From a bacterium (GTDB lineage Bacteria; Electryoneota; Electryoneia; Electryoneales; Electryoneaceae), in assembly GCA_043801585.1 (NCBI GenBank), contig JAZDLX010000200.1, positions 18,621 through 82,620 of the forward strand: 64,000 bases of DNA, written 5' to 3'. Positions 18,753 through 54,625 of the stretch are shown here, piece after piece. How positions within the stretch are numbered: the first letter of the stretch is position 1; each line of letters opens with the position of its first letter. The position numbers were made by a program, and so were the translations under genes. Below the pieces are notes generated by a model, which saw nothing but the letters and a program-made list of their open reading frames with translations, was not told where the DNA came from and made no database searches.

Positions 18753-18790
18753 CGGCAACACCGGCATCTGCCGGTTGAACCGAACATAGA

Positions 18791-18966
18791 TCCCTGCACA
18801 TAGGCTCACGGCCTAGATTGAGAACCAACACTCAATCGAAGGGCGTTCGGCTTCGGTCGCGAAAATCAGACCTCCCCGCTTGCGGGTTGAGGAAGGTTGA
18901 CGCGATTGGGAGGACGCCCACTGTGGAATAGTAGGTTCCCAATCCTACTCCGTGAGCGTGCAGGGT
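18791..18966 (+). ncRNA. ssrS: 6S RNA
   Basis: About 176 nt; closing stem CCCTGCAC/GTGCAGGG, then GCTCACGG/CCGTGAGC, inner GGGCGT/ACGCCC, central bubble; canonical position downstream of zapA. Confidence 0.85.
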
Positions 18967-19022
18967 TTTTTATTTGGTTTCCACGCGCGGCCATCGCCGT
19001 GCCTAGGGGGGATAAAAAGGAG

Positions 19023-32541: not shown

Positions 32542-33060
32542 ATGGTCCTCGAAAAAGCCAACCTTTACAAGGCACTCACGCAAGCGGTGGCTGAATCTCT
32601 TGAATCACTCGCTTTCGTTGAAGCGATTCTGCTGGATGAAAAAACACCACTTTTGCCGGAAGAGCAGGCTCCGAAACCTCGAACGAGCGTAGCATGGGCA
32701 CGTACACCGTTTATCAAACCTCTTGAAGGAGAGATTCTGTTGATCATGCCTCCGGAACTTGGACAGATGTTGACGGAAATCATATTCGGGGCCATGGGAG
32801 AGGAAAAGATCTCGGACGAAGTGATGCTCGACGCCATCGCCGAGACCTCCAACGTCGTCGCCGGAAGAGTGATGAACGGCTTGATCGGCAATCACACCGA
32901 GTTCGAGTTAGGATTGCCAATTCGAGGAATGGGTTCGAGCGACCAAGAGGTCCCCATGCCTCGAGGAACGCTTCACAAACTTGATTATACTATCGAAGGT
33001 TATACATTTACTGTCATCCTTGGTGCTAAAGGCTTTGAACAGGATCGCAATTCGAAGTAG
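32542..33060 (+). CDS. CheX/CheC-like protein
   Basis: DAIAETSNVVAG (ExxN motif), FELGLP; chemotaxis context. Confidence 0.75.
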   Translation: MVLEKANLYKALTQAVAESLESLAFVEAILLDEKTPLLPEEQAPKPRTSVAWARTPFIKPLEGEILLIMPPELGQMLTEIIFGAMGEEKISDEVMLDAIAETSNVVAGRVMNGLIGNHTEFELGLPIRGMGSSDQEVPMPRGTLHKLDYTIEGYTFTVILGAKGFEQDRNSK

Positions 33061-33072
33061 CGGGAGTGACGC

Positions 33073-33432
33073 ATGAAGATTCTTGTGGTTGATGATTCTG
33101 CGACGATGCGCCGCATCATTGAAAACAACCTGAAAACATCGGGTTTTGAAGACATTATCCAAGCGGGGAACGGCGTGGAAGCACTTGCGAACATGGCGGG
33201 TATCGATCTTGTTCTAACCGATTGGAATATGCCGGTGATGGACGGGTTGAGCCTGGTCAAGGAGATTCGCGGCAATCCGACATTCGCGAATATTCCGATC
33301 GTCATGATCACGACAGAAGGTGCAAAAGAAGAGGTCATCGAGGCACTGAAGGAAGGTGTGAACGACTATATCGTCAAACCGTTCACCAAGCAGGTGCTGC
33401 TGGAGAAAATTGAAAAAGTGACCCAAGGCTGA
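33073..33432 (+). CDS. cheY: Chemotaxis response regulator CheY
   Basis: KILVVDDS, TDWNMPVMDG, MITTEG, YIVKPF. Confidence 0.9.
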   Translation: MKILVVDDSATMRRIIENNLKTSGFEDIIQAGNGVEALANMAGIDLVLTDWNMPVMDGLSLVKEIRGNPTFANIPIVMITTEGAKEEVIEALKEGVNDYIVKPFTKQVLLEKIEKVTQG

Positions 33433-33454
33433 GCTTACAGCATCGGAGTTGTTT

Positions 33455-33928
33455 ATGGATGTTCGATATATCAATCCTTTCATCAACGCAACGATCAATA
33501 CGCTCGAAATGATGACGGGATTGACCCCTGAACCGAAAACACCCTACACCAAGGATAACTTCACAACCCAGGGAGATATCAGCGGTGTCATCGGTTTCGC
33601 GGAAAAAAACATCATCGGATCGGTGATTCTCAGTTTTCCCGAAGAAACCGCGATCATACTTTACAATGCAATGACTGGTGAAAACATCTTTCGCATCACC
33701 CGTGACGTTGAAGACAGCATCGGAGAATTGACGAACATCGTTGCCGGTGGCGCAAAAACCGTTCTCGCTGCCGAAGGCTTATCCTTCAACATCTCCATTC
33801 CATCCGTTATCGTAGGGAAGAGCCATACGATCACCAGCAAGGTCAACGCGCCCATTATCGTCATTCCATTCCAACTGGATCGAATGCGGTTTGTCATGGA
33901 AGTGACGATAAAGATTGAAGGGCAGTAG
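33455..33928 (+). CDS. cheX: Chemotaxis phosphatase CheX
   Basis: YINPFI, GDISGVIG, DSIGELTNIVAGGAK, ISIPSVIVG. Confidence 0.9.
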   Translation: MDVRYINPFINATINTLEMMTGLTPEPKTPYTKDNFTTQGDISGVIGFAEKNIIGSVILSFPEETAIILYNAMTGENIFRITRDVEDSIGELTNIVAGGAKTVLAAEGLSFNISIPSVIVGKSHTITSKVNAPIIVIPFQLDRMRFVMEVTIKIEGQ

Positions 33929-33993: not shown

Positions 33994-34006
33994 ATATTGT
34001 CGCCGT

Positions 34007-34756
34007 TCATCGATGCAGTGTTTCCCAGCGATCAAGCACACGTTGAAGGTTCTGCACCGCACGTGCCGCGACTGCATCAAGGAATCGTTCCGCTTTGTCC
34101 CGGTCATAGTCCGGGAACCCTTCACCTTCATGTTCCAGGATGATCGGAAAGGGGCCGGGATAAGCGGCGATTGCCGGGTTCAGGATCCCCGCATCTTCTT
34201 TTTTCCACTGGCCATCAGGTGCGGCTTCCGGCCGGATGGCAAGAACGAGTCCCGTCTCCGCGGTGCCTGAATGTCCGCCGAGTGCTTCATATGCCCCCGG
34301 TTCATTCCCGGGAATCTCACGGAACCAGTCGTAGGAGAGGGCGAACGCCCCTCGTTTCCGGTGCAGCTCGAAGGCCGCGGCTTTGATGCTGTCGATGTTC
34401 CCCGAGTGACCGTTGATGAAAAGCAATTCCCTGAAACCGCTGTCCATAAGGCCCGTTCCAATTTCCACGAGCAGCCGGGTGTAGGTTTCGGGAGTCAAGG
34501 TGACCGACCCCGGATACCGGCTGAGCGTTCGCAACGTTCCATAGGCGACAGCGGGTGCGACGAGGGCGTTCAATGCCGGGGCGATGCGAAGAGCAAGTCC
34601 TTCCGGGATCAACGTGTCCGTTCCTACTCCCGCTGCGCCATGCGCCTCTGTCGCTCCGCAGGGAATCATCACCCGATGAATCCGTTTCGGAACAAGCTCC
34701 CCGATTTCACTCGTCAGCAGTTCTTCCAGCTTCCAGCTTCTTACCGAGCTACTCAT
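34007..34756 (-). CDS. Creatininase family amidohydrolase
   Basis: PCGATEAHG....GTD, YPGSVTL, INGHSGN, GHSGTAET. Confidence 0.88.
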   Translation of the reverse strand: MSSSVRSWKLEELLTSEIGELVPKRIHRVMIPCGATEAHGAAGVGTDTLIPEGLALRIAPALNALVAPAVAYGTLRTLSRYPGSVTLTPETYTRLLVEIGTGLMDSGFRELLFINGHSGNIDSIKAAAFELHRKRGAFALSYDWFREIPGNEPGAYEALGGHSGTAETGLVLAIRPEAAPDGQWKKEDAGILNPAIAAYPGPFPIILEHEGEGFPDYDRDKAERFLDAVAARAVQNLQRVLDRWETLHR

Positions 34757-35831
34757 CTTCCGTCTCCTTGGATACGGGATTTGGTCGATTCGACTGTGCA
34801 GCCAGCAACACCTTCTCCACCAGCCCGGGAAGCAGTCGCGTCGCATCCGCGAGCAGAAGGGGAGGTGAATCTCCACGGATCACGATGACGGCAGGGAGGG
34901 AACGAATCCCCAATCCCAGCAGGCGACCGCTCCGAAAGCCGATCTTCTTGACAGTGATATCCAGCCCCCAGTCCAGCGCCGCTGCTCGCCCTGCGTCCAC
35001 ATTGATCCCCGCAAAACAAAAGGAATGGGGAATCCCGCTGCTGAGAAAATACAAGTCGAGTTCGCGAAGGATGGAGGCTTCATCATCGCCGCCAACCTCA
35101 TCCCAGAGAACAACAACACCCACCCTCTCGTCCGTCTGTCCTTTCGGTCTGCACGACCGTGGGACTGAGATTCGTTCAGTCGACGAGGCGTGTCGTTCTG
35201 CGTTTCGCAGGATCAGCTCCACTGACGATTTCTGATACTGCCGCCGGTACGCGTCCCACTGTTCTTCCGGATATTCCTGCGCCAGGTAGAGTTCTTTCGC
35301 ACTGGTGAGTAGATCGTTGTTGCCGGTCAGCAGCCATCCTGTCAGCAATGTTCCGAGCGCTTCCGACGGATACTCCTCATCTCGAAGGATCGAAGAGAGC
35401 AGGAGGTAGGTGTCCGCGGATCCATCAAGATCCACTGCCCTCGCTGCTGCGGCTTCCTCTTCCATACGCTTTTCGGTTCCAAGCAAGAGGTGCGCGATCC
35501 TGAAATGGATCCTGCCTTCCGCACGCTGGACACGGTTTACCCAGCGCAGCCTGTCCCAGGGCTTGCGGGGATGTTTCCTCCATTTCTCCAGTTTAATGAG
35601 CTGAGCATGCAGGGATTCCATCGGGGTTTCATCCGCAATCAGAGAGTCCACCTCGGCTGCAAGTCGAGCGTCATTGGATTGAACGAGCAGCGTCATCAGG
35701 GGATCATCCCGGTCCCTTGCCGATGAAACCGGAGCCGACAACAGGATGGCGGAGAAGAGGAGCAGCGGGAAAAGAAAACGGAAACGCACCCATGTAGAAT
35801 GCGGTGCCGGGATGTTGATGTTCGCGAACAT
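34749..35831 (-). CDS. Exported hypothetical protein (helical repeats plus possible thioredoxin-like C-terminus)
   Basis: Hydrophobic signal-like segment; overlaps the creatininase start; start codon uncertain. Confidence 0.55.
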   Translation of the reverse strand: MFANINIPAPHSTWVRFRFLFPLLLFSAILLSAPVSSARDRDDPLMTLLVQSNDARLAAEVDSLIADETPMESLHAQLIKLEKWRKHPRKPWDRLRWVNRVQRAEGRIHFRIAHLLLGTEKRMEEEAAAARAVDLDGSADTYLLLSSILRDEEYPSEALGTLLTGWLLTGNNDLLTSAKELYLAQEYPEEQWDAYRRQYQKSSVELILRNAERHASSTERISVPRSCRPKGQTDERVGVVVLWDEVGGDDEASILRELDLYFLSSGIPHSFCFAGINVDAGRAAALDWGLDITVKKIGFRSGRLLGLGIRSLPAVIVIRGDSPPLLLADATRLLPGLVEKVLLAAQSNRPNPVSKETEDE

Positions 35832-35891
35832 AGGCGGAAAGTAGAACAGGCCGCTGCTCCAAGGCAAACGATTAGGGCTACAAGTTGGCAC

Positions 35892-35982
35892 AAAAAACGG
35901 CATGCTTTGGGAAGCATGCCGTAAGCAAGGGCTCCTTTCGGATCGAAAGGAGTTGGCAGCGTGAGTCATTCGCTCAGCTGAC
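35892..35982 (-). ncRNA. Candidate sigma54-dependent small RNA, or structured leader/attenuator
   Basis: Three consecutive hairpins; the last is an 11-bp stem followed by a U-run; the 5' end lies about 12-14 nt downstream of a -24/-12 motif. Confidence 0.6.
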
Positions 35983-35993
35983 AAGAAAATAAT

Positions 35994-36010
35994 TGGCATA
36001 TTCCGTGCCA
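35994..36010 (-). promoter_or_regulatory. Sigma54-type -24/-12 promoter
   Basis: Minus strand TGGCACGGAATATGCC, GG-N10-GC spacing; IHF-like ATACAA-GGAG-TTA at 36029-36041. Confidence 0.6.
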
Positions 36011-36259
36011 TCCGTATTAGTACTATATATACAAGGAGTTATAGTAAAACGAACGTCAAGAACAAGGGATCATTGGCGGAAAGATTTGCCTTTTCTCAGC
36101 AGGAGATTCCGATTTTCAGCTGTTCGAACACGGATTGATGTGCTTGGGAAGGATGAATGTCGTTCTTTCCCGTGGCATGCAATTTTCGTATGTTTTTTCG
36201 TTCATAGAGTTCACCATCTTCATGAAAAAAGAACCTTTGCGTTTCCACGGAGACGATAC

Positions 36260-37744
36260 ATGGAACATCAGCTCGAAGCATGGCTGAAAACCTATCGCGG
36301 GGAAGCTGCGATTTCGCCCGCGACCTGGGCGGAACTTCCCAAGGACTGCAAAAGAAAACTCGATAATTATGCTCGGGACGAGGCGGTTCGGCGCGCGGAC
36401 GAGTTCGCTCGAGACGGCCATCTCGACCTCGATCGTCAGGATGCCATCCGTCAACTCGTTGATTCTATGGCGCAATGTTGGATGCTTCCGGGCGAGGAGG
36501 CACGTCGTATCGTGGAGGATTTCCTCGACGAATTGCCAGCCAACCCCGGATTTGAGTTTGACAAACTCTCGACGAGGACGTTTCGCCGCCGTGTGAACGG
36601 CACCTGGAAAGATCTCCTGGATAGTTTCGATTTGAAAAAGGAACCGAAAATCATCAGCATCGTCAGCAGGGAGCTGGATGTCGACAGGAGAAAAAATACG
36701 GACCGCACATCCTTCCTTGCAGCCTGGCGGGAAGCCTACGACCACTGGAGTCTGGCAGAGGCGAAAGATGCGGTAAATGAACTGATTGACCTTGTCAACG
36801 CAGGTGCAACCGGAGCAACGGAAGTTTCATTGCGAGAAATTCTCCCCCTGATCAAGCATCGCGGTGGCGCTTCATGGGCGAAAGCCCTCGAACTCGAACT
36901 GGAAGTTGGAGTGGAAGCAGCAGTTCGAGAAGACCTCATTCGCATGTTGAAACGGTATGCGTTGATCGTTCGCAGGGAGGGGGCGCTTGCGGAGCCCCCA
37001 AAGCCCAGAACGATCAGCGTTGATCTCGGGATTGAAGGGGAAAGCGTTGCTGCTCAGCACGCAACACTCCGCACGGAACCGGAGGTGGAACCATTGGTCA
37101 GCGTCGAGACTGAGCCGGAACCGGAAGAGCCAAAGACACCTGATGTTGAAGAAGAATCCGAGTCCTCTGAAGAGGACGCTGAAGTGGAGGCCCTCGAACC
37201 CGCGGAATCCATTTTTAACCAGCCGAGCGAAGAGGACAGGGAAGCTGCGGAGGAATTGTTCGGCAATGCCGAATCGGAAGTACAAGCAGTGGAAGAAATC
37301 CATCACGCGGTTGACGTTGTTGATGAGGATTCCGAACAAGTAGTTGAGGAAAAAGAATCAGCCGTTTCCCCTGTTGAAGCACAGGAGGTAGTGAGCCCTC
37401 CGAGCAAAGCTGCGATTCGAGTACCTGAGAAAGAGACTCCAGATGAGCATGAAGGAGCGCGGAAGAAGCGGTTGAAAGATGTCTTCTCGCCATCTCCTGT
37501 GCGTGATAAGAAAGACCGTTTTGCGGTGATTCGATCCGGTGAGTTTCGTGAGAGGGTAGTCCGGGAGATGTATAGCGGCGACGCGACTCTCCTTGATGTC
37601 TTCCTTGCCAAGCTGTCAGGCGCACCGGATTGGAACAGGGCGAAGCAGTTTATTGCGAATGAGTTTTTCCGATGCAAGGTCGATCTTCATTCTGAATTGG
37701 GAGAGGAGTTGTTTCTCAAATTGAAGGAGAATTTGAGTGAATGA
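36260..37744 (+). CDS. Hypothetical protein with long acidic low-complexity linker
   Basis: SD GGAG before ATG 36260; helical N- and C-terminal domains flank an E/P/S/V-rich region; overlaps the HDOD gene. Confidence 0.75.
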   Translation: MEHQLEAWLKTYRGEAAISPATWAELPKDCKRKLDNYARDEAVRRADEFARDGHLDLDRQDAIRQLVDSMAQCWMLPGEEARRIVEDFLDELPANPGFEFDKLSTRTFRRRVNGTWKDLLDSFDLKKEPKIISIVSRELDVDRRKNTDRTSFLAAWREAYDHWSLAEAKDAVNELIDLVNAGATGATEVSLREILPLIKHRGGASWAKALELELEVGVEAAVREDLIRMLKRYALIVRREGALAEPPKPRTISVDLGIEGESVAAQHATLRTEPEVEPLVSVETEPEPEEPKTPDVEEESESSEEDAEVEALEPAESIFNQPSEEDREAAEELFGNAESEVQAVEEIHHAVDVVDEDSEQVVEEKESAVSPVEAQEVVSPPSKAAIRVPEKETPDEHEGARKKRLKDVFSPSPVRDKKDRFAVIRSGEFRERVVREMYSGDATLLDVFLAKLSGAPDWNRAKQFIANEFFRCKVDLHSELGEELFLKLKENLSE

Positions 37745-38654
37745 ACACCCAGAACCTTTCGTTGATCCCTCGATTGGAGATGTAGAAGAACTTCAAAAAC
37801 GCGTGCGCTCAACCATCGAGGGAGTGACGGACCTTCCGACACTTCCAGGTGTGGTGATGAAGGTGGTCCAGCTCGCCGCGGACGAGAACGTGTCTGCGCG
37901 GCAGCTGAAGGAAGTTATTGTCACCGATCCTCCGCTGAGTGCGAAAGTCCTGAAAGCAGCGAATTCCGCTTTTTTCGCGAGGCGTGAAAAGACGGAAAAC
38001 CTGGACCAGGCGATCGTCACAATCGGTCTGAACGAGCTGATCAATCTCTGTGTTTCCACTGGCATGATCGAGACGCTTGAGAGCTGGGAAGAGAAACAGC
38101 TTCATCGCGCCGACATCTGGAAGCATTCTCTGGCCACCGCCTTCCTGGCGAAGAGTCTCGGTCTGCGAAAGGATATGCAGCGGCCGGGATCTCCCGATCT
38201 GTTTCTCTGCGGGCTGCTGCACAACATCGGATGGATTGTCATCGATCAATTCTTCCGAAGTGAATTGAAAGCCCTGCTGAAAACAGCCGCCGAAGTGGGA
38301 GAGTGGCGTCTCGAATACGAACAGCGCTACCTCGGGTTGAACCACGCGGAAATCGGCGCCCTTTTCCTGAGGAAATGGGGATTACCCGATGCCATCGCAC
38401 ATGTGATCGAGTACCACCACACGCCTGACAACACGAAAGAACATGCTGCGGAAGCGGCGTTGATCGGACTCGCTGCGACCTTGTCTCCCTTCGAGTTTTT
38501 CCCCAACATCCATGTCAACACGATCAGCGATCACATCCCACACCTTTTGCAGCACACCGAGGGGGAAGCCGCCATACGAGAAATGCGGCAGCGGTATGAA
38601 GCAAACATTAAACAGGCGAAGGTGATGACGGAACGGATGATGTCCTGGCTGTAG
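37737..38654 (+). CDS. HDOD domain-containing protein
   Basis: LPTLP, DPPLSAKVLKAANSAFF, WKHSLATA, GLLHNIG, HAEIGA...WGLP...YHH. Confidence 0.92.
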   Translation: MNEHPEPFVDPSIGDVEELQKRVRSTIEGVTDLPTLPGVVMKVVQLAADENVSARQLKEVIVTDPPLSAKVLKAANSAFFARREKTENLDQAIVTIGLNELINLCVSTGMIETLESWEEKQLHRADIWKHSLATAFLAKSLGLRKDMQRPGSPDLFLCGLLHNIGWIVIDQFFRSELKALLKTAAEVGEWRLEYEQRYLGLNHAEIGALFLRKWGLPDAIAHVIEYHHTPDNTKEHAAEAALIGLAATLSPFEFFPNIHVNTISDHIPHLLQHTEGEAAIREMRQRYEANIKQAKVMTERMMSWL

Positions 38655-38738: not shown

Positions 38739-38822
38739 GCCGGAGTGGTGGAATTGGTAGACGCGCTGGTTTCAGGGACCAGTGTCCTTCGGGACGTGAG
38801 GGTTCGAGTCCCTCCTTCGGCA
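38739..38822 (+). tRNA. tRNA-Leu(CAG)
   Basis: Acceptor GCCGGAG/CTTCGGC, D-loop GGAATTGGTAGAC, anticodon arm CTGGT-TTCAGGG-ACCAG, long variable arm, GGTTCGAGTCC; CCA not encoded. Confidence 0.96.
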
Positions 38823-52616: not shown

Positions 52617-52632
52617 TGGCACAGCTGTTGCA
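52617..52632 (+). promoter_or_regulatory. Sigma54 -24/-12 promoter upstream of dnaK
   Basis: TGGCAC-AGCTG-TTGCA, consensus match. Confidence 0.75.
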
Positions 52633-52714: not shown

Positions 52715-54625
52715 ATGAGCAAGATCATTGGCATTGACCTCGGAACCACAAATTCCGTTGTATCGGTGATGGAAGGTGGCGAGCCTGTCGTTATTCAGAA
52801 TGCCGAAGGCTCGCGCACAACGCCGTCGGTCGTCGCCTTCGCGAAATCCGGCGAACGTCTTATCGGTGCACCCGCGAAACGCCAGGCAATCACCAATCCT
52901 GAAAACACGGTGTATTCAATCAAGCGTTTCATGGGCCGCCGCAAGGACGAAGTGGGCACGGAGATCACTGAAGTGCCTTACAGGGTTTCTGCGAACAAGA
53001 ACGGCCTTGCCCAGGTGGAAATCGGCGACAAGACCTACACACCACCGGAAATTTCCGCGATGATCCTCCAGAAACTGAGACAGGCGGCAGAGGATTATCT
53101 GGGCGAGAAGGTGGACCGTGCGGTGATCACCGTTCCGGCCTACTTCAACGACTCGCAGCGTCAAGCGACCAAGGACGCCGGTGAGATCGCCGGGCTGAAG
53201 GTGGAGCGGATCATCAACGAACCGACAGCCGCGTCTCTCGCTTACGGCCTCGATAAAAAGAAAGACGAGAAGATCGCCGTGTTCGACCTCGGCGGTGGAA
53301 CATTCGACATCTCGATCCTCGACATCGGCGATGGCGTCTTCGAAGTCAAATCGACGAACGGCGACACACATCTCGGCGGTGACGATTTCGATCAGCGAAT
53401 CATAGACTGGTTGGCTGAGGAGTTCAAGAAAGACAACGGCATCGACCTGAAAAGGGATAAGATGGCTCTGCAGCGGTTGAAAGAGGCCGCTGAAAAGGCA
53501 AAAATCGAGCTCTCGTCATCGACACAGACCCAGATCAACCTGCCTTTCATCACGGCGAACCAGGATGGCCCGGTGCACCTCGACATGACCTTGAGCCGTG
53601 CCAAACTCGAATCCCTCGTCGCGGACCTGATCGAACGCAGCATCGATCCGTGCAAGCGTGCGTTGAAAGACGCGAAACTCTCGATCAAGGACATCGACGA
53701 AGTGATTCTCGTAGGTGGTTCCACCCGTATTCCCGCGATCCAGGAAGAGGTCGAGAAGTTCTTCCAGCGGAAACCTCACAAGGGCGTCAATCCGGACGAG
53801 GTGGTCGCGGTCGGGGCTGCGATTCAGGGCGGTATTCTCGCCGGCGACGTTCAGGACGTGGTCCTGCTCGATGTCACTCCGCTTTCTCTCGGCATCGAGA
53901 CCCTGGGGGGGGTTATGACCCGTCTGATCGAGGCGAATACAACAATTCCGTCGAAGAAGACCGAAATATTCAGCACCGCCGCCGATAGCCAGACCACGGT
54001 GGACATCCACGTCCTCCAGGGCGAGCGTCCGATGGCAGCCGACAATAAAACGATCGGACGTTTCCAGTTGACAGGGATTCCACCCGCACCGCGTGGCATC
54101 CCGCAGATTGAAGTCAGCTTCGACATCGATGCCAACGGTATCCTTTCGGTGGGCGCCAAGGACAAGGCAACGAACAAAGAGCAGTCAATCAAAATCGAGG
54201 CGTCATCCGGTCTCTCAAAGGGCGACGTTGAAAAGATGAGGGAAGAGGCGAAAAAACACGCCAGCGAAGACAAACATCGCCGTGAAGAGGTTGACACGCG
54301 CAACGAGGCGGACGCCCGTGCCCATCAGTCCCGCAAACAGCTCGAGGAACTGAAGGATCAGATCCGGGAAGAGGATCGGAAGGCTATCGAGGAGAAGATC
54401 GAGAAGATCGAGCAGGTTCTGAAAAGCGGCACCAGCGCCGAGATCAAAGCCGCCAACGAAGATCTGACCAAAACCTGGTCTGATGTGTCAACACGGCTGT
54501 ACCAGCAGGCTGGTGCTCAGGCCGGTGCCGAAAGCGCAACCGACGACTCAGGTAAGAAAAAGGACGAACCTGACGTCGAAACAGCCGACTACGAAGTCGT
54601 GGACGAGGATGACGACAAGAAGTGA
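52715..54625 (+). CDS. dnaK: Molecular chaperone DnaK
   Basis: [53 protein letters not shown]. Confidence 0.99.

Follow-up and report, generated by a model that had tools for sequence, protein, structure and literature searches.

The locus examined here raises the question of whether a promoter-like motif and a run of potential hairpins in an intergenic region of a bacterial genome constitute a gene for a small RNA (sRNA) and, if so, what such an RNA would act on. The locus lies in a 64,000-nucleotide (nt) stretch of a genome of the family Electryoneaceae (assembly GCA_043801585.1, contig JAZDLX010000200.1, positions 18,621 to 82,620), to which we refer as the window and in which all coordinates below are given unless another contig is named. 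We conclude that the locus very probably holds a real, conserved and previously undescribed sigma-54-type sRNA gene and that the RNA probably pairs, as modeled, with the leader of a flagellin mRNA, with repression of flagellin translation as an outcome to which we give about even chances. Taken as a whole, the reading that we favor on balance is that of a stand-alone sRNA of ~90 nt, transcribed from a sigma-54-type promoter, that would pair with the leader of one sigma-28-type flagellin gene and block its ribosome-binding site (RBS).

The candidate gene is on the minus strand and, read in the direction of transcription, consists of the following elements:

35995..36010, minus strand: sigma-54-type -24/-12 promoter element TGGCACGGAATATGCC, with GG at 36009-36008, GC at 35997-35996 and ten bases between them
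35955..35982, minus strand: hairpin 1, at the 5' end of the predicted RNA, from the fold
35932..35952, minus strand: hairpin 2, in which CUCCUUUCG pairs with CGAAAGGAG over 9 bp, with one arm resembling an anti-Shine-Dalgarno (anti-SD) and the other a Shine-Dalgarno (SD) sequence, from the fold and the alignment
35923..35931, minus strand: single-stranded linker CCCUUGCUU, within which CCCUUGCU is the proposed seed or toehold, from conservation and the folds
35892..35922, minus strand: intrinsic terminator (hairpin at 35897-35922) with an 11-bp stem (6 G-C), a 4-nt loop and then UUUUUU, from the fold and a terminator scan

Most of this anatomy had been described in the original prediction, which was made from the sequence alone. 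The -24/-12 motif is present as GG-N10-GC, TGGCACGGAATATGCC, at 36010-35995 of the minus strand, the 91-nt segment downstream of it is exact as quoted (35982-35892, minus strand), and folding reproduced the three hairpins, terminator included. The minimum free energy of this segment is -39.0 kcal/mol, compared to a shuffle mean of -19.9 kcal/mol (standard deviation 3.0; z = -6.46), and none of 200 dinucleotide shuffles matched its stability. It is also correct that no gene lies upstream on the same strand, the upstream neighbor (36260-37744) being a divergent gene on the plus strand. The claimed binding site for integration host factor (IHF) was not recovered, because every stretch in the 120 nt preceding the -24 element differs from the consensus used for scoring, WATCAANNNNTTR, at two or more positions; IHF-like sites with at most one mismatch are found in 4 of 12 family members (G006 was outside this set), compared to 1.7 ± 1.2 in shuffles. 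The terminator at 35922-35897 is among the hits of a scan that, as a whole, performed at chance level (5 sites in 4 kb, with 4.8 expected). The promoter and terminator scan detected no sigma-70-like promoter in 34000-38000, and transcription of the RNA would be expected to start at ~35985-35982.

The family, order and class to which the window belongs comprise the same 16 genomes, and the class is uncultured and known from metagenome-assembled genomes. A BLASTN search of 61 related genomes showed that G001, from the same genus, is 96% identical to the window over exactly the RNA body, and that the match in four more genomes of the family extends over hairpin 2, linker and terminator; a scan for the exact pattern in one genome per species (185,579 species) retrieved only these five genomes. 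We then relied on a covariance model that spans the RNA from hairpin 2 to the terminator and excludes the promoter and hairpin 1. Whole-region alignments made with MAFFT misplaced the 5' arm of hairpin 2; the first model was built from three sequences with equal loop lengths and the remaining sequences were refitted to it. This model gave one strong match in each of 12 of the 16 class genomes. A thirteenth copy, in G006, lies beside a homolog of P0001, the divergent upstream neighbor, and scores 46.7 bits with filters off. The model rebuilt from all 13 sequences finds matches in 13 of the 16 genomes, one copy each, including the single copy in the genome of the window. Outside the class, the only match to the rebuilt model among 63 other genomes of the phylum is a weak one (23 bits, E = 0.006). 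The RNA was not found with the model in G002, G004 and G007, and a pattern search for further copies in these genomes returned nothing convincing; the model-based genome search scores a subset of first-look candidates, and "not found" does not equal "absent". A pattern scan of metagenomes yielded six matches; in four, the promoter, hairpins and terminator are all in place, and the other two are hairpins unrelated to the family. Separately, G005 contains a second possible small RNA, L145 (G005:C1:3170746-3170788, minus strand), in which the seed ACCCCUUGCU directly precedes a terminator hairpin with a U-run and no sigma-54-type motif is found upstream; this may be a sibling of the RNA or simply a terminator.

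For this RNA, no Rfam family matched at its gathering score in the window, the best sub-threshold hit being Hrs12 (21.3 bits compared to a gathering score of 70), and searches with nine related loci gave no match at E ≤ 0.01. The original prediction had cited known sigma-54-driven sRNAs as precedents and suggested this comparison, which matched the locus to no family, Qrr, GlmY/GlmZ, CrcZ and Pxr included. A limited full-text search of the literature for sigma-54 sRNAs with an anti-SD element or a flagellin target found nothing from this lineage. We call the family undescribed because of the lack of an Rfam match and this limited literature search only.

The structure is retained across the family. 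In the model-fitted alignment of 13 sequences, which by construction leans toward the structure of the model, 97.4% of the cells are paired and 11 of the 18 pairs show changes on both sides, whereas slid controls are 41-54% paired. On four of five measures, the observed value was beyond all 500 shuffles; on the fifth, "further pair types", it was reached by 215 of them. In the terminator, 7 of the 10 modeled pairs are changed on both sides and 100% of the cells are paired among the 13 members. In hairpin 2, both arms are near-identical in 12 of the 13 members, the closing pair is unpaired in 6 of 13, and all four double changes come from G006, in which the arms are UUCUUCUU/AAGAAGAA and the changes are compensatory. 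With 5' ends assumed to lie 11 nt past the promoter 16-mer, all 13 RNAs fold into three hairpins. Hairpin 1 is a 5' hairpin in every member, variable in sequence and of three types, and every member has a U-run after the last stem. The loop of hairpin 2 varies in length by non-multiples of three, and the linker CCCUUGCU is invariant in all 13 genomic members and fully unpaired in 9 of the 13 predicted folds. A reading of the locus as a small-protein gene was set aside, given that the ATG inside the terminator of this genome is, by eye, not kept in relatives.

Thus, the stems and the -24/-12-type motif recur in 12 further genomes and the terminator covaries across the 13 members, as would be expected if the original prediction of an unannotated sigma-54-type sRNA is right; the conserved promoter motif, the three hairpins, the covarying terminator and the presence in 13 of the 16 class genomes all support that prediction. 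Its emphasis on an anti-SD element holds in part: the C/U-rich arm is predicted to pair with the SD of a flagellin mRNA in all 13 cofolds, whereas the part that is invariant in all members is the linker CCCUUGCU, and the arm itself is changed in G006.

Sigma-54 promoters carry GG at -24 and GC at -12, ten bases apart, in a TGGCAC-N5-TTGC-like context, and the promoter of the RNA in the genome of the window has the GG, the GC and the ten-base gap. Although the promoter was outside the search model, a GG-N10-G motif is located 32-49 nt upstream of the RNA core in all 13 members, in flanks that otherwise cannot be aligned. TGGCA[CT] is exact in 10 of the 13, and the remaining three have TGGTAC, CGGCAC and TGGAGC. 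In the 3.28-Mb genome, TGGCA[CT]-N5-NTGC occurs 62 times, counting both strands. The genome encodes the corresponding sigma factor, rpoN, on which the original prediction depended (Sigma54_DBD, 173.8 bits, in a 499-aa open frame on contig C98), and contains 17 Sigma54_activat matches above 80 bits.

A candidate target emerges from the linker. Its exact complement, AGCAAGGG, is a motif of flagellin leaders. In the genome of the window, TAGCAAGGG occurs four times, one of these in the leader of a flagellin gene that is truncated by the end of contig C84 (Flagellin_N, 133 bits), at a distance of 35 nt from the ATG, and other seed matches are near the starts of other open reading frames (ORFs). 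Class genomes have at least three flagellin paralogs in 15 of 16 cases, G004 having a single partial match. We read the upstream regions of 40 of the 67 flagellin matches: AGCAAGGG is found within 70 nt of the ATG in 16 of them, exactly one per genome in 16 of 16 genomes, and the other 24 lack it, with one carrying UGCAAGGG. A CCGATA-type -10-like element precedes the motif in all 16, at a distance of 7 nt in 15 leaders and of 8 nt in the other one, and a TAAAG/TCAAG -35-like element was located by script 15-16 nt further upstream in 14 of 16. Both elements resemble the sigma-28 consensus. Given its distance from the -10-like element, AGCAAGGG is therefore placed at the predicted first bases of the flagellin mRNA. 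In the sister family f6, none of 30 flagellin leaders contains AGCAAGGG or even GCAAGGG.

CsrA sites are known in the flagellin leaders of Bacillus hag and Campylobacter flaA. Searches detected neither CsrA nor Hfq in any of six genomes, ProQ in none of five, and FliW and FlbT in none of one genome each; the CsrA, Hfq and ProQ searches included one single-contig genome, and the estimated completeness of the searched genomes is 92-96%. Interpretation of the leader motif as a CsrA site was set aside on the strength of these results for CsrA (0 of 6) and FliW (0 of 1). The RNA was also considered as a CsrA-sequestering sRNA of the CsrB/RsmZ type and rejected, given that it has a single GGA, located in a stem and lost in G006, and that CsrA was not found.

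When each RNA was cofolded with the leader from its own genome, interaction energies ranged from -18.8 to -32.4 kcal/mol in 13 of 13 cases, compared to -3.1 to -10.2 kcal/mol for 19 of 20 leaders of other flagellin paralogs; the exception is a G010 leader with UGCAAGGG, at -18.2 kcal/mol. None of 40 mononucleotide shuffles per genome reached the cognate energy. The predicted complexes contain 24-44 intermolecular pairs and cover the leader 5' end and the SD in all 13 cofolds. The seed is paired at 8 of 8 positions in 10 cofolds and at 5 of 8 in the other three, and at least 4 of the 5 bases of the SD GGAGG are paired with the C/U-rich 5' arm of the RNA in all 13, so that the suggestion in the original prediction that the RNA may pair with ribosome-binding sites is borne out, at the level of prediction, for the SD of one flagellin mRNA. 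Both arms of hairpin 2 are predicted to open and pair with the leader. In the genome of the window, the predicted pairing also extends across the flagellin start codon, through the 3' half of hairpin 1 (ACUCACGCUGC), and in G006 the altered hairpin arm still places AGAACCCUUGCU against AGCAAGGGUUCU.

Two comparisons address the specificity of this pairing. Among 4879 candidate 5' regions in the genome of the window, the flagellin leader takes first place (-21.5 kcal/mol, the next being -16.1), in a ranking by duplex energy of regions from -60 to +15 that were defined by crude ORF calls, with the best 400 re-scored by cofolding. A duplex scan with the linker alone was noisy and covered -35 to +18, leaving the flagellin site (36-43 nt upstream of the ATG) out of view. 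Across genomes, the 13 RNAs were paired with 16 leaders, and cognate pairs average -24.5 kcal/mol, compared to -19.4 kcal/mol (standard deviation 4.8) for pairs between genera. In a permutation test over eight genera, with one representative per genus (G001, G012, G013, G014 and G015 were dropped as same-genus duplicates), only 1 of 20,000 permutations was as low as the cognate arrangement (p = 5e-5). The leader of G002, a genome in which the RNA was not found, is the worst partner for every RNA (-9 to -16 kcal/mol), and the G004 and G007 leaders still pair well. Apart from the main target, a second flagellin leader of G010, L119, has UGCAAGGGUUUG farther from the promoter and the only strong non-target energy (-18.2 kcal/mol), and may, by the same modeling, be a second target. 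Four leaders of another flagellin paralog in genus g11 (L130, L131, L132 and L134) share a conserved GTGCC...GGCAC hairpin just before CCCACA(A)GGAGG.

These predictions can be combined into a sequence of events. The minus-strand gene at ~35982-35892 would produce an RNA of ~90 nt from the sigma-54-type promoter, and the flagellin mRNA would first be engaged at its very 5' end, with the single-stranded linker as the toehold. Pairing would then spread into hairpin 2, with its 3' arm (GAAAGGA) pairing with UCCUUU of the leader, and the freed C/U-rich 5' arm (CUCCUU) would pair with the flagellin SD. Translation of this flagellin paralog would presumably be repressed as a result. In the model, the RNA amounts to an abridged antisense version of the flagellin leader.

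As for the timing of such control, sigma-54-type motifs are located 34 nt before a rod-protein gene (Flg_bb_rod, 22.4 bits, barely above the cut-off) and 109 nt before flgD (78 bits), both on the same contig as the targeted flagellin gene. Because these motifs precede the rod-protein gene and flgD, the flagellar middle genes look sigma-54-driven, whereas the targeted flagellin looks sigma-28-driven. The RNA could be made together with the middle-class flagellar genes, since the rod and hook operons here also carry sigma-54-type motifs, and could hold back the late, sigma-28-dependent flagellin. A more far-reaching version of this scheme, which we put forward only tentatively and consider rather doubtful as a whole, is a lineage-specific, RNA-only checkpoint between the hook-basal-body (sigma-54) and filament (sigma-28) stages. 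In such a checkpoint, the linker would dock on bases 1-8 of the mRNA, after which strand invasion would open the hairpin that mimics an SD/anti-SD pair, and the released anti-SD arm would clamp the RBS; the RNA and the leader motif would have arisen together and co-evolved, in genomes in which Hfq, ProQ, CsrA, FliW and FlbT were not found.

The alternatives depend in part on the genes that flank the RNA:

36260..37744, plus strand: divergent neighbor P0001, 494 aa, part of the context and not shown to be a functional partner
34749..35831, minus strand: downstream same-strand gene P0002, encoding a secreted-looking protein of 360 aa, part of the context and not required by the RNA
34876-34007, minus strand: creatininase-family gene after P0002

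Several observations weigh against the reading of a stand-alone sRNA that blocks the RBS of one flagellin gene. The existence, start and end of the RNA are deduced from sequence. Only 7 of the 13 members have the canonical GC at -12 (4 have GT and 2 have GA), and none of the 17 Sigma54_activat matches is on the contig of the window. Furthermore, no upstream activator site is common to the RNA promoter and the flgB-like and flgD promoters, which share a single 9-mer at unrelated distances, and because no such site was found, we can only infer that the RNA is co-regulated with the flagellar middle class. On the side of the target, the genome-wide ranking is subject to the crude ORF calls, non-cognate pairs are stable too (the mean of -19.4 kcal/mol given above), and much of the pairing energy is due to a shared core and generic SD/anti-SD pairing. 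Hairpin 2 is a stable helix of 8-9 bp that must open, and cofolding ignores kinetics. G002, G004 and G007 keep AGCAAGGG in a flagellin leader even though the RNA was not found there, and the leader motif may have a role of its own. Finally, a UUCCUUU element pairs with the SD in some leaders folded alone, such that binding of the RNA could activate rather than repress, and folding does not settle the direction of control.

This last point leads to an alternative to which we give a minor but real share of the probability, namely, that the RNA pairs with the flagellin leader and activates or stabilizes the mRNA, by protecting its 5' end from decay or by freeing the SD from UUCCUUU. The seed site is at the predicted +1 of the mRNA, a UUCCUUU/UUCUUUU element pairs with the SD region in 4 of 16 lone leaders (G004, G007, G008 and G009), and the SD-like 3' arm of the RNA pairs with the UUCCUUU element in the cofolds; however, the same cofolds cover the SD with the C/U-rich arm in 13 of 13 cases, the leaders of the 13 RNA-bearing genomes are weakly structured on their own (-7 to -13 kcal/mol) with no consistent sequestration of the SD, and the known analog FlaX is a repressor. 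We consider it unlikely that the RNA is real and flagellin is not its main target, such that other mRNAs would be targeted through the linker or the hairpin-1 loop, or a protein would bind the RNA, and AGCAAGGG would serve another factor. The persistence of AGCAAGGG in the three genomes without a detected RNA fits this possibility, as do the additional seed matches near other ORF starts in the genome of the window and the hairpin-1 loop CUGCGC(A), which is common to 6 of the 13 members from five genera and is not fully explained by flagellin pairing. Nevertheless, no other candidate in the genome ranks above the flagellin leader as a partner, permuted pairs do worse than cognate ones, both the RNA and the leader motif are restricted to this one class, and the six genomes searched yielded no CsrA, the protein that usually binds flagellin leaders.

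The remaining two alternatives deny that the RNA is a stand-alone gene. The original prediction had allowed for an attenuator of the genes at 35831-34007, whereby the promoter would serve the downstream secreted-protein and creatininase-family genes through conditional read-through of the terminator. In the genome of the window, a same-strand gene does begin ~60 nt past the U-run, and in 8 of 12 relatives the strand of the RNA carries a creatininase-family gene further downstream, usually behind a poorly conserved secreted protein. However, the pair of P0002 and the creatininase gene is absent downstream of the RNA in the other 4 relatives, all from genus g11, in which a convergent CheX gene ends ~110 nt past the RNA core instead. 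Because, in these four genomes, the convergent CheX gene after the terminator leaves nothing to control, we interpret the RNA as a stand-alone sRNA and regard the attenuator as very improbable. In addition, the distance to the next gene ranges from ~90 to 440 nt, the adjoining gene is poorly conserved (21-49% identity, or undetected), no alternative antiterminator pairing was noted, and a perfect complement to the conserved linker exists at another place in the genome. The other possibility, that of a conserved DNA element (for example, palindromes bound by a protein within a divergent promoter region) or of a segment of a longer coding frame, is one to which we give hardly any credence. It would be in line with the divergent intergenic position beside a gene conserved across the class, with an ORF open from 36011 into the downstream gene in the genome of the window and with the near-palindromic promoter 16-mer here, but would not account for compensatory changes that keep both stems while the sequence drifts, for hairpin-2 loops that differ by non-multiples of three or for the U-run in all 13 members, and the downstream frame is missing in genus g11.

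With respect to the upstream neighbor, all 12 relatives with the RNA have a P0001 homolog upstream of it, encoded on the opposite strand at a distance of 266-430 nt from the core, and P0001 homologs are found in all 16 class genomes and in none of 63 other genomes of the phylum. P0001 has no match in Pfam or NCBIfam and no useful match in Atlas; its middle part is acidic, and its gene is usually followed by an HDOD gene. The promoter 16-mer (35994-36010) is nearly palindromic here, so that a TGGCATATTCCGTGC motif is also present on the plus strand, aimed at P0001 250 nt away; this plus-strand motif is probably a chance occurrence and is absent in G001. The block AATTGCATGCCACGGGAAAGA (~36165-36190) is identical in G000 and G001, and its plus strand contains TGGCATGCAATTTTC, ~80 nt before the start of P0001, a partial -24/-12 look-alike without the -12 GC. 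On the other side of the RNA, a CheX - response regulator - CheX cluster at 32542-33928 (plus strand) is convergent with the strand of the RNA and abuts the RNA terminator in genus g11.

Elsewhere in the window, Rfam identified a 6S RNA at 18788-18970 (plus strand, 50.8 bits) and a tRNA at 38739-38822 (plus strand, 48.6 bits). A sigma-54-type motif, TGGCACAGCTGTTGC, is located at 52617-52631 (plus strand), 82 nt upstream of an Hsp70/DnaK gene at 52715-54625 (HSP70, 886 bits), and a comparable motif precedes a gene on contig C36 that we take, from its N-terminal sequence, to be ClpB-like. Judging from these motifs, heat-shock genes may be sigma-54-driven in this organism.

This work describes a new, well-supported small-RNA family with a concrete predicted target in a class known only from metagenome-assembled genomes, for which, to our knowledge, no RNA regulators have been described before. 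If the predicted pairing is right, the invariant 8-nt linker, the 5'-terminal 8-nt site and the hairpin to be invaded would amount to a compact natural case of toehold-type pairing. We know of no demonstration of RNA control of flagellin leaders by the sigma-54 tier other than that of FlaX in Vibrio; the present findings suggest that such control arose independently and that it can work where none of three common RNA chaperones was found.

In terms of promoter and architecture, the RNA resembles Qrr and GlmY/GlmZ, which are stand-alone sigma-54-dependent sRNAs with a -24/-12 promoter, several hairpins and an intrinsic terminator and which act in trans, on quorum-sensing regulators in the case of Qrr and on RapZ/glmS in the case of GlmY/GlmZ. 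Qrr requires Hfq, and the activator genes of Qrr/GlmY-type sRNAs are known, that of qrr1 being adjacent. By contrast, the RNA described here has no Rfam match, Hfq was not found in the genomes searched, and no activator gene is nearby. The flagellar hierarchy of Campylobacter jejuni, an organism not known to possess Hfq, provides a second point of comparison. CJnc230 (FlmE) is reported to be an RpoN-dependent sRNA that is processed from the flgE mRNA, directly represses translation and targets flgM and a flagella-interaction regulator, thereby raising flagellin expression (PMC11187230). It is likewise an RpoN-dependent sRNA within the hierarchy from sigma-54 to sigma-28, whereas the RNA described here has its own promoter and its predicted target is the flagellin leader itself.

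By analogy, the closest counterpart is FlaX of Vibrio cholerae. FlaX is an RpoN/FlrC-dependent class III sRNA of ~265 nt, cut from the flaA 3' untranslated region by RNase E and associated with ProQ, that pairs at three sites in the 5' untranslated region of flaB, a flagellin gene of a later class, including the RBS, and prevents 30S binding. It consolidates the sequence of the flagellar hierarchy and adjusts the choice of flagellin paralog (PMC11879080). Similarly, the RNA described here is predicted to pair at two to three sites, RBS included, on one of at least three flagellin paralogs. It differs from FlaX in being ~90 nt long and intergenic, with its own sigma-54-type promoter and terminator and neighbors that are not flagellin genes, and in that ProQ, as well as Hfq and CsrA, was not found in the genomes searched here. 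The two are likened by the function predicted here, with no computed match linking the families. Control by proteins at the flagellin leader or SD, as exerted by CsrA-FliW and FlbT-FlaF, ties flagellin translation to the state of assembly. These systems share with the predicted mechanism the target region and the logic, and differ from it in that their effector is a protein. Thus, by analogy, we infer that the RNA described here might fill the role that is played elsewhere by FlaX, CsrA-FliW or FlbT.

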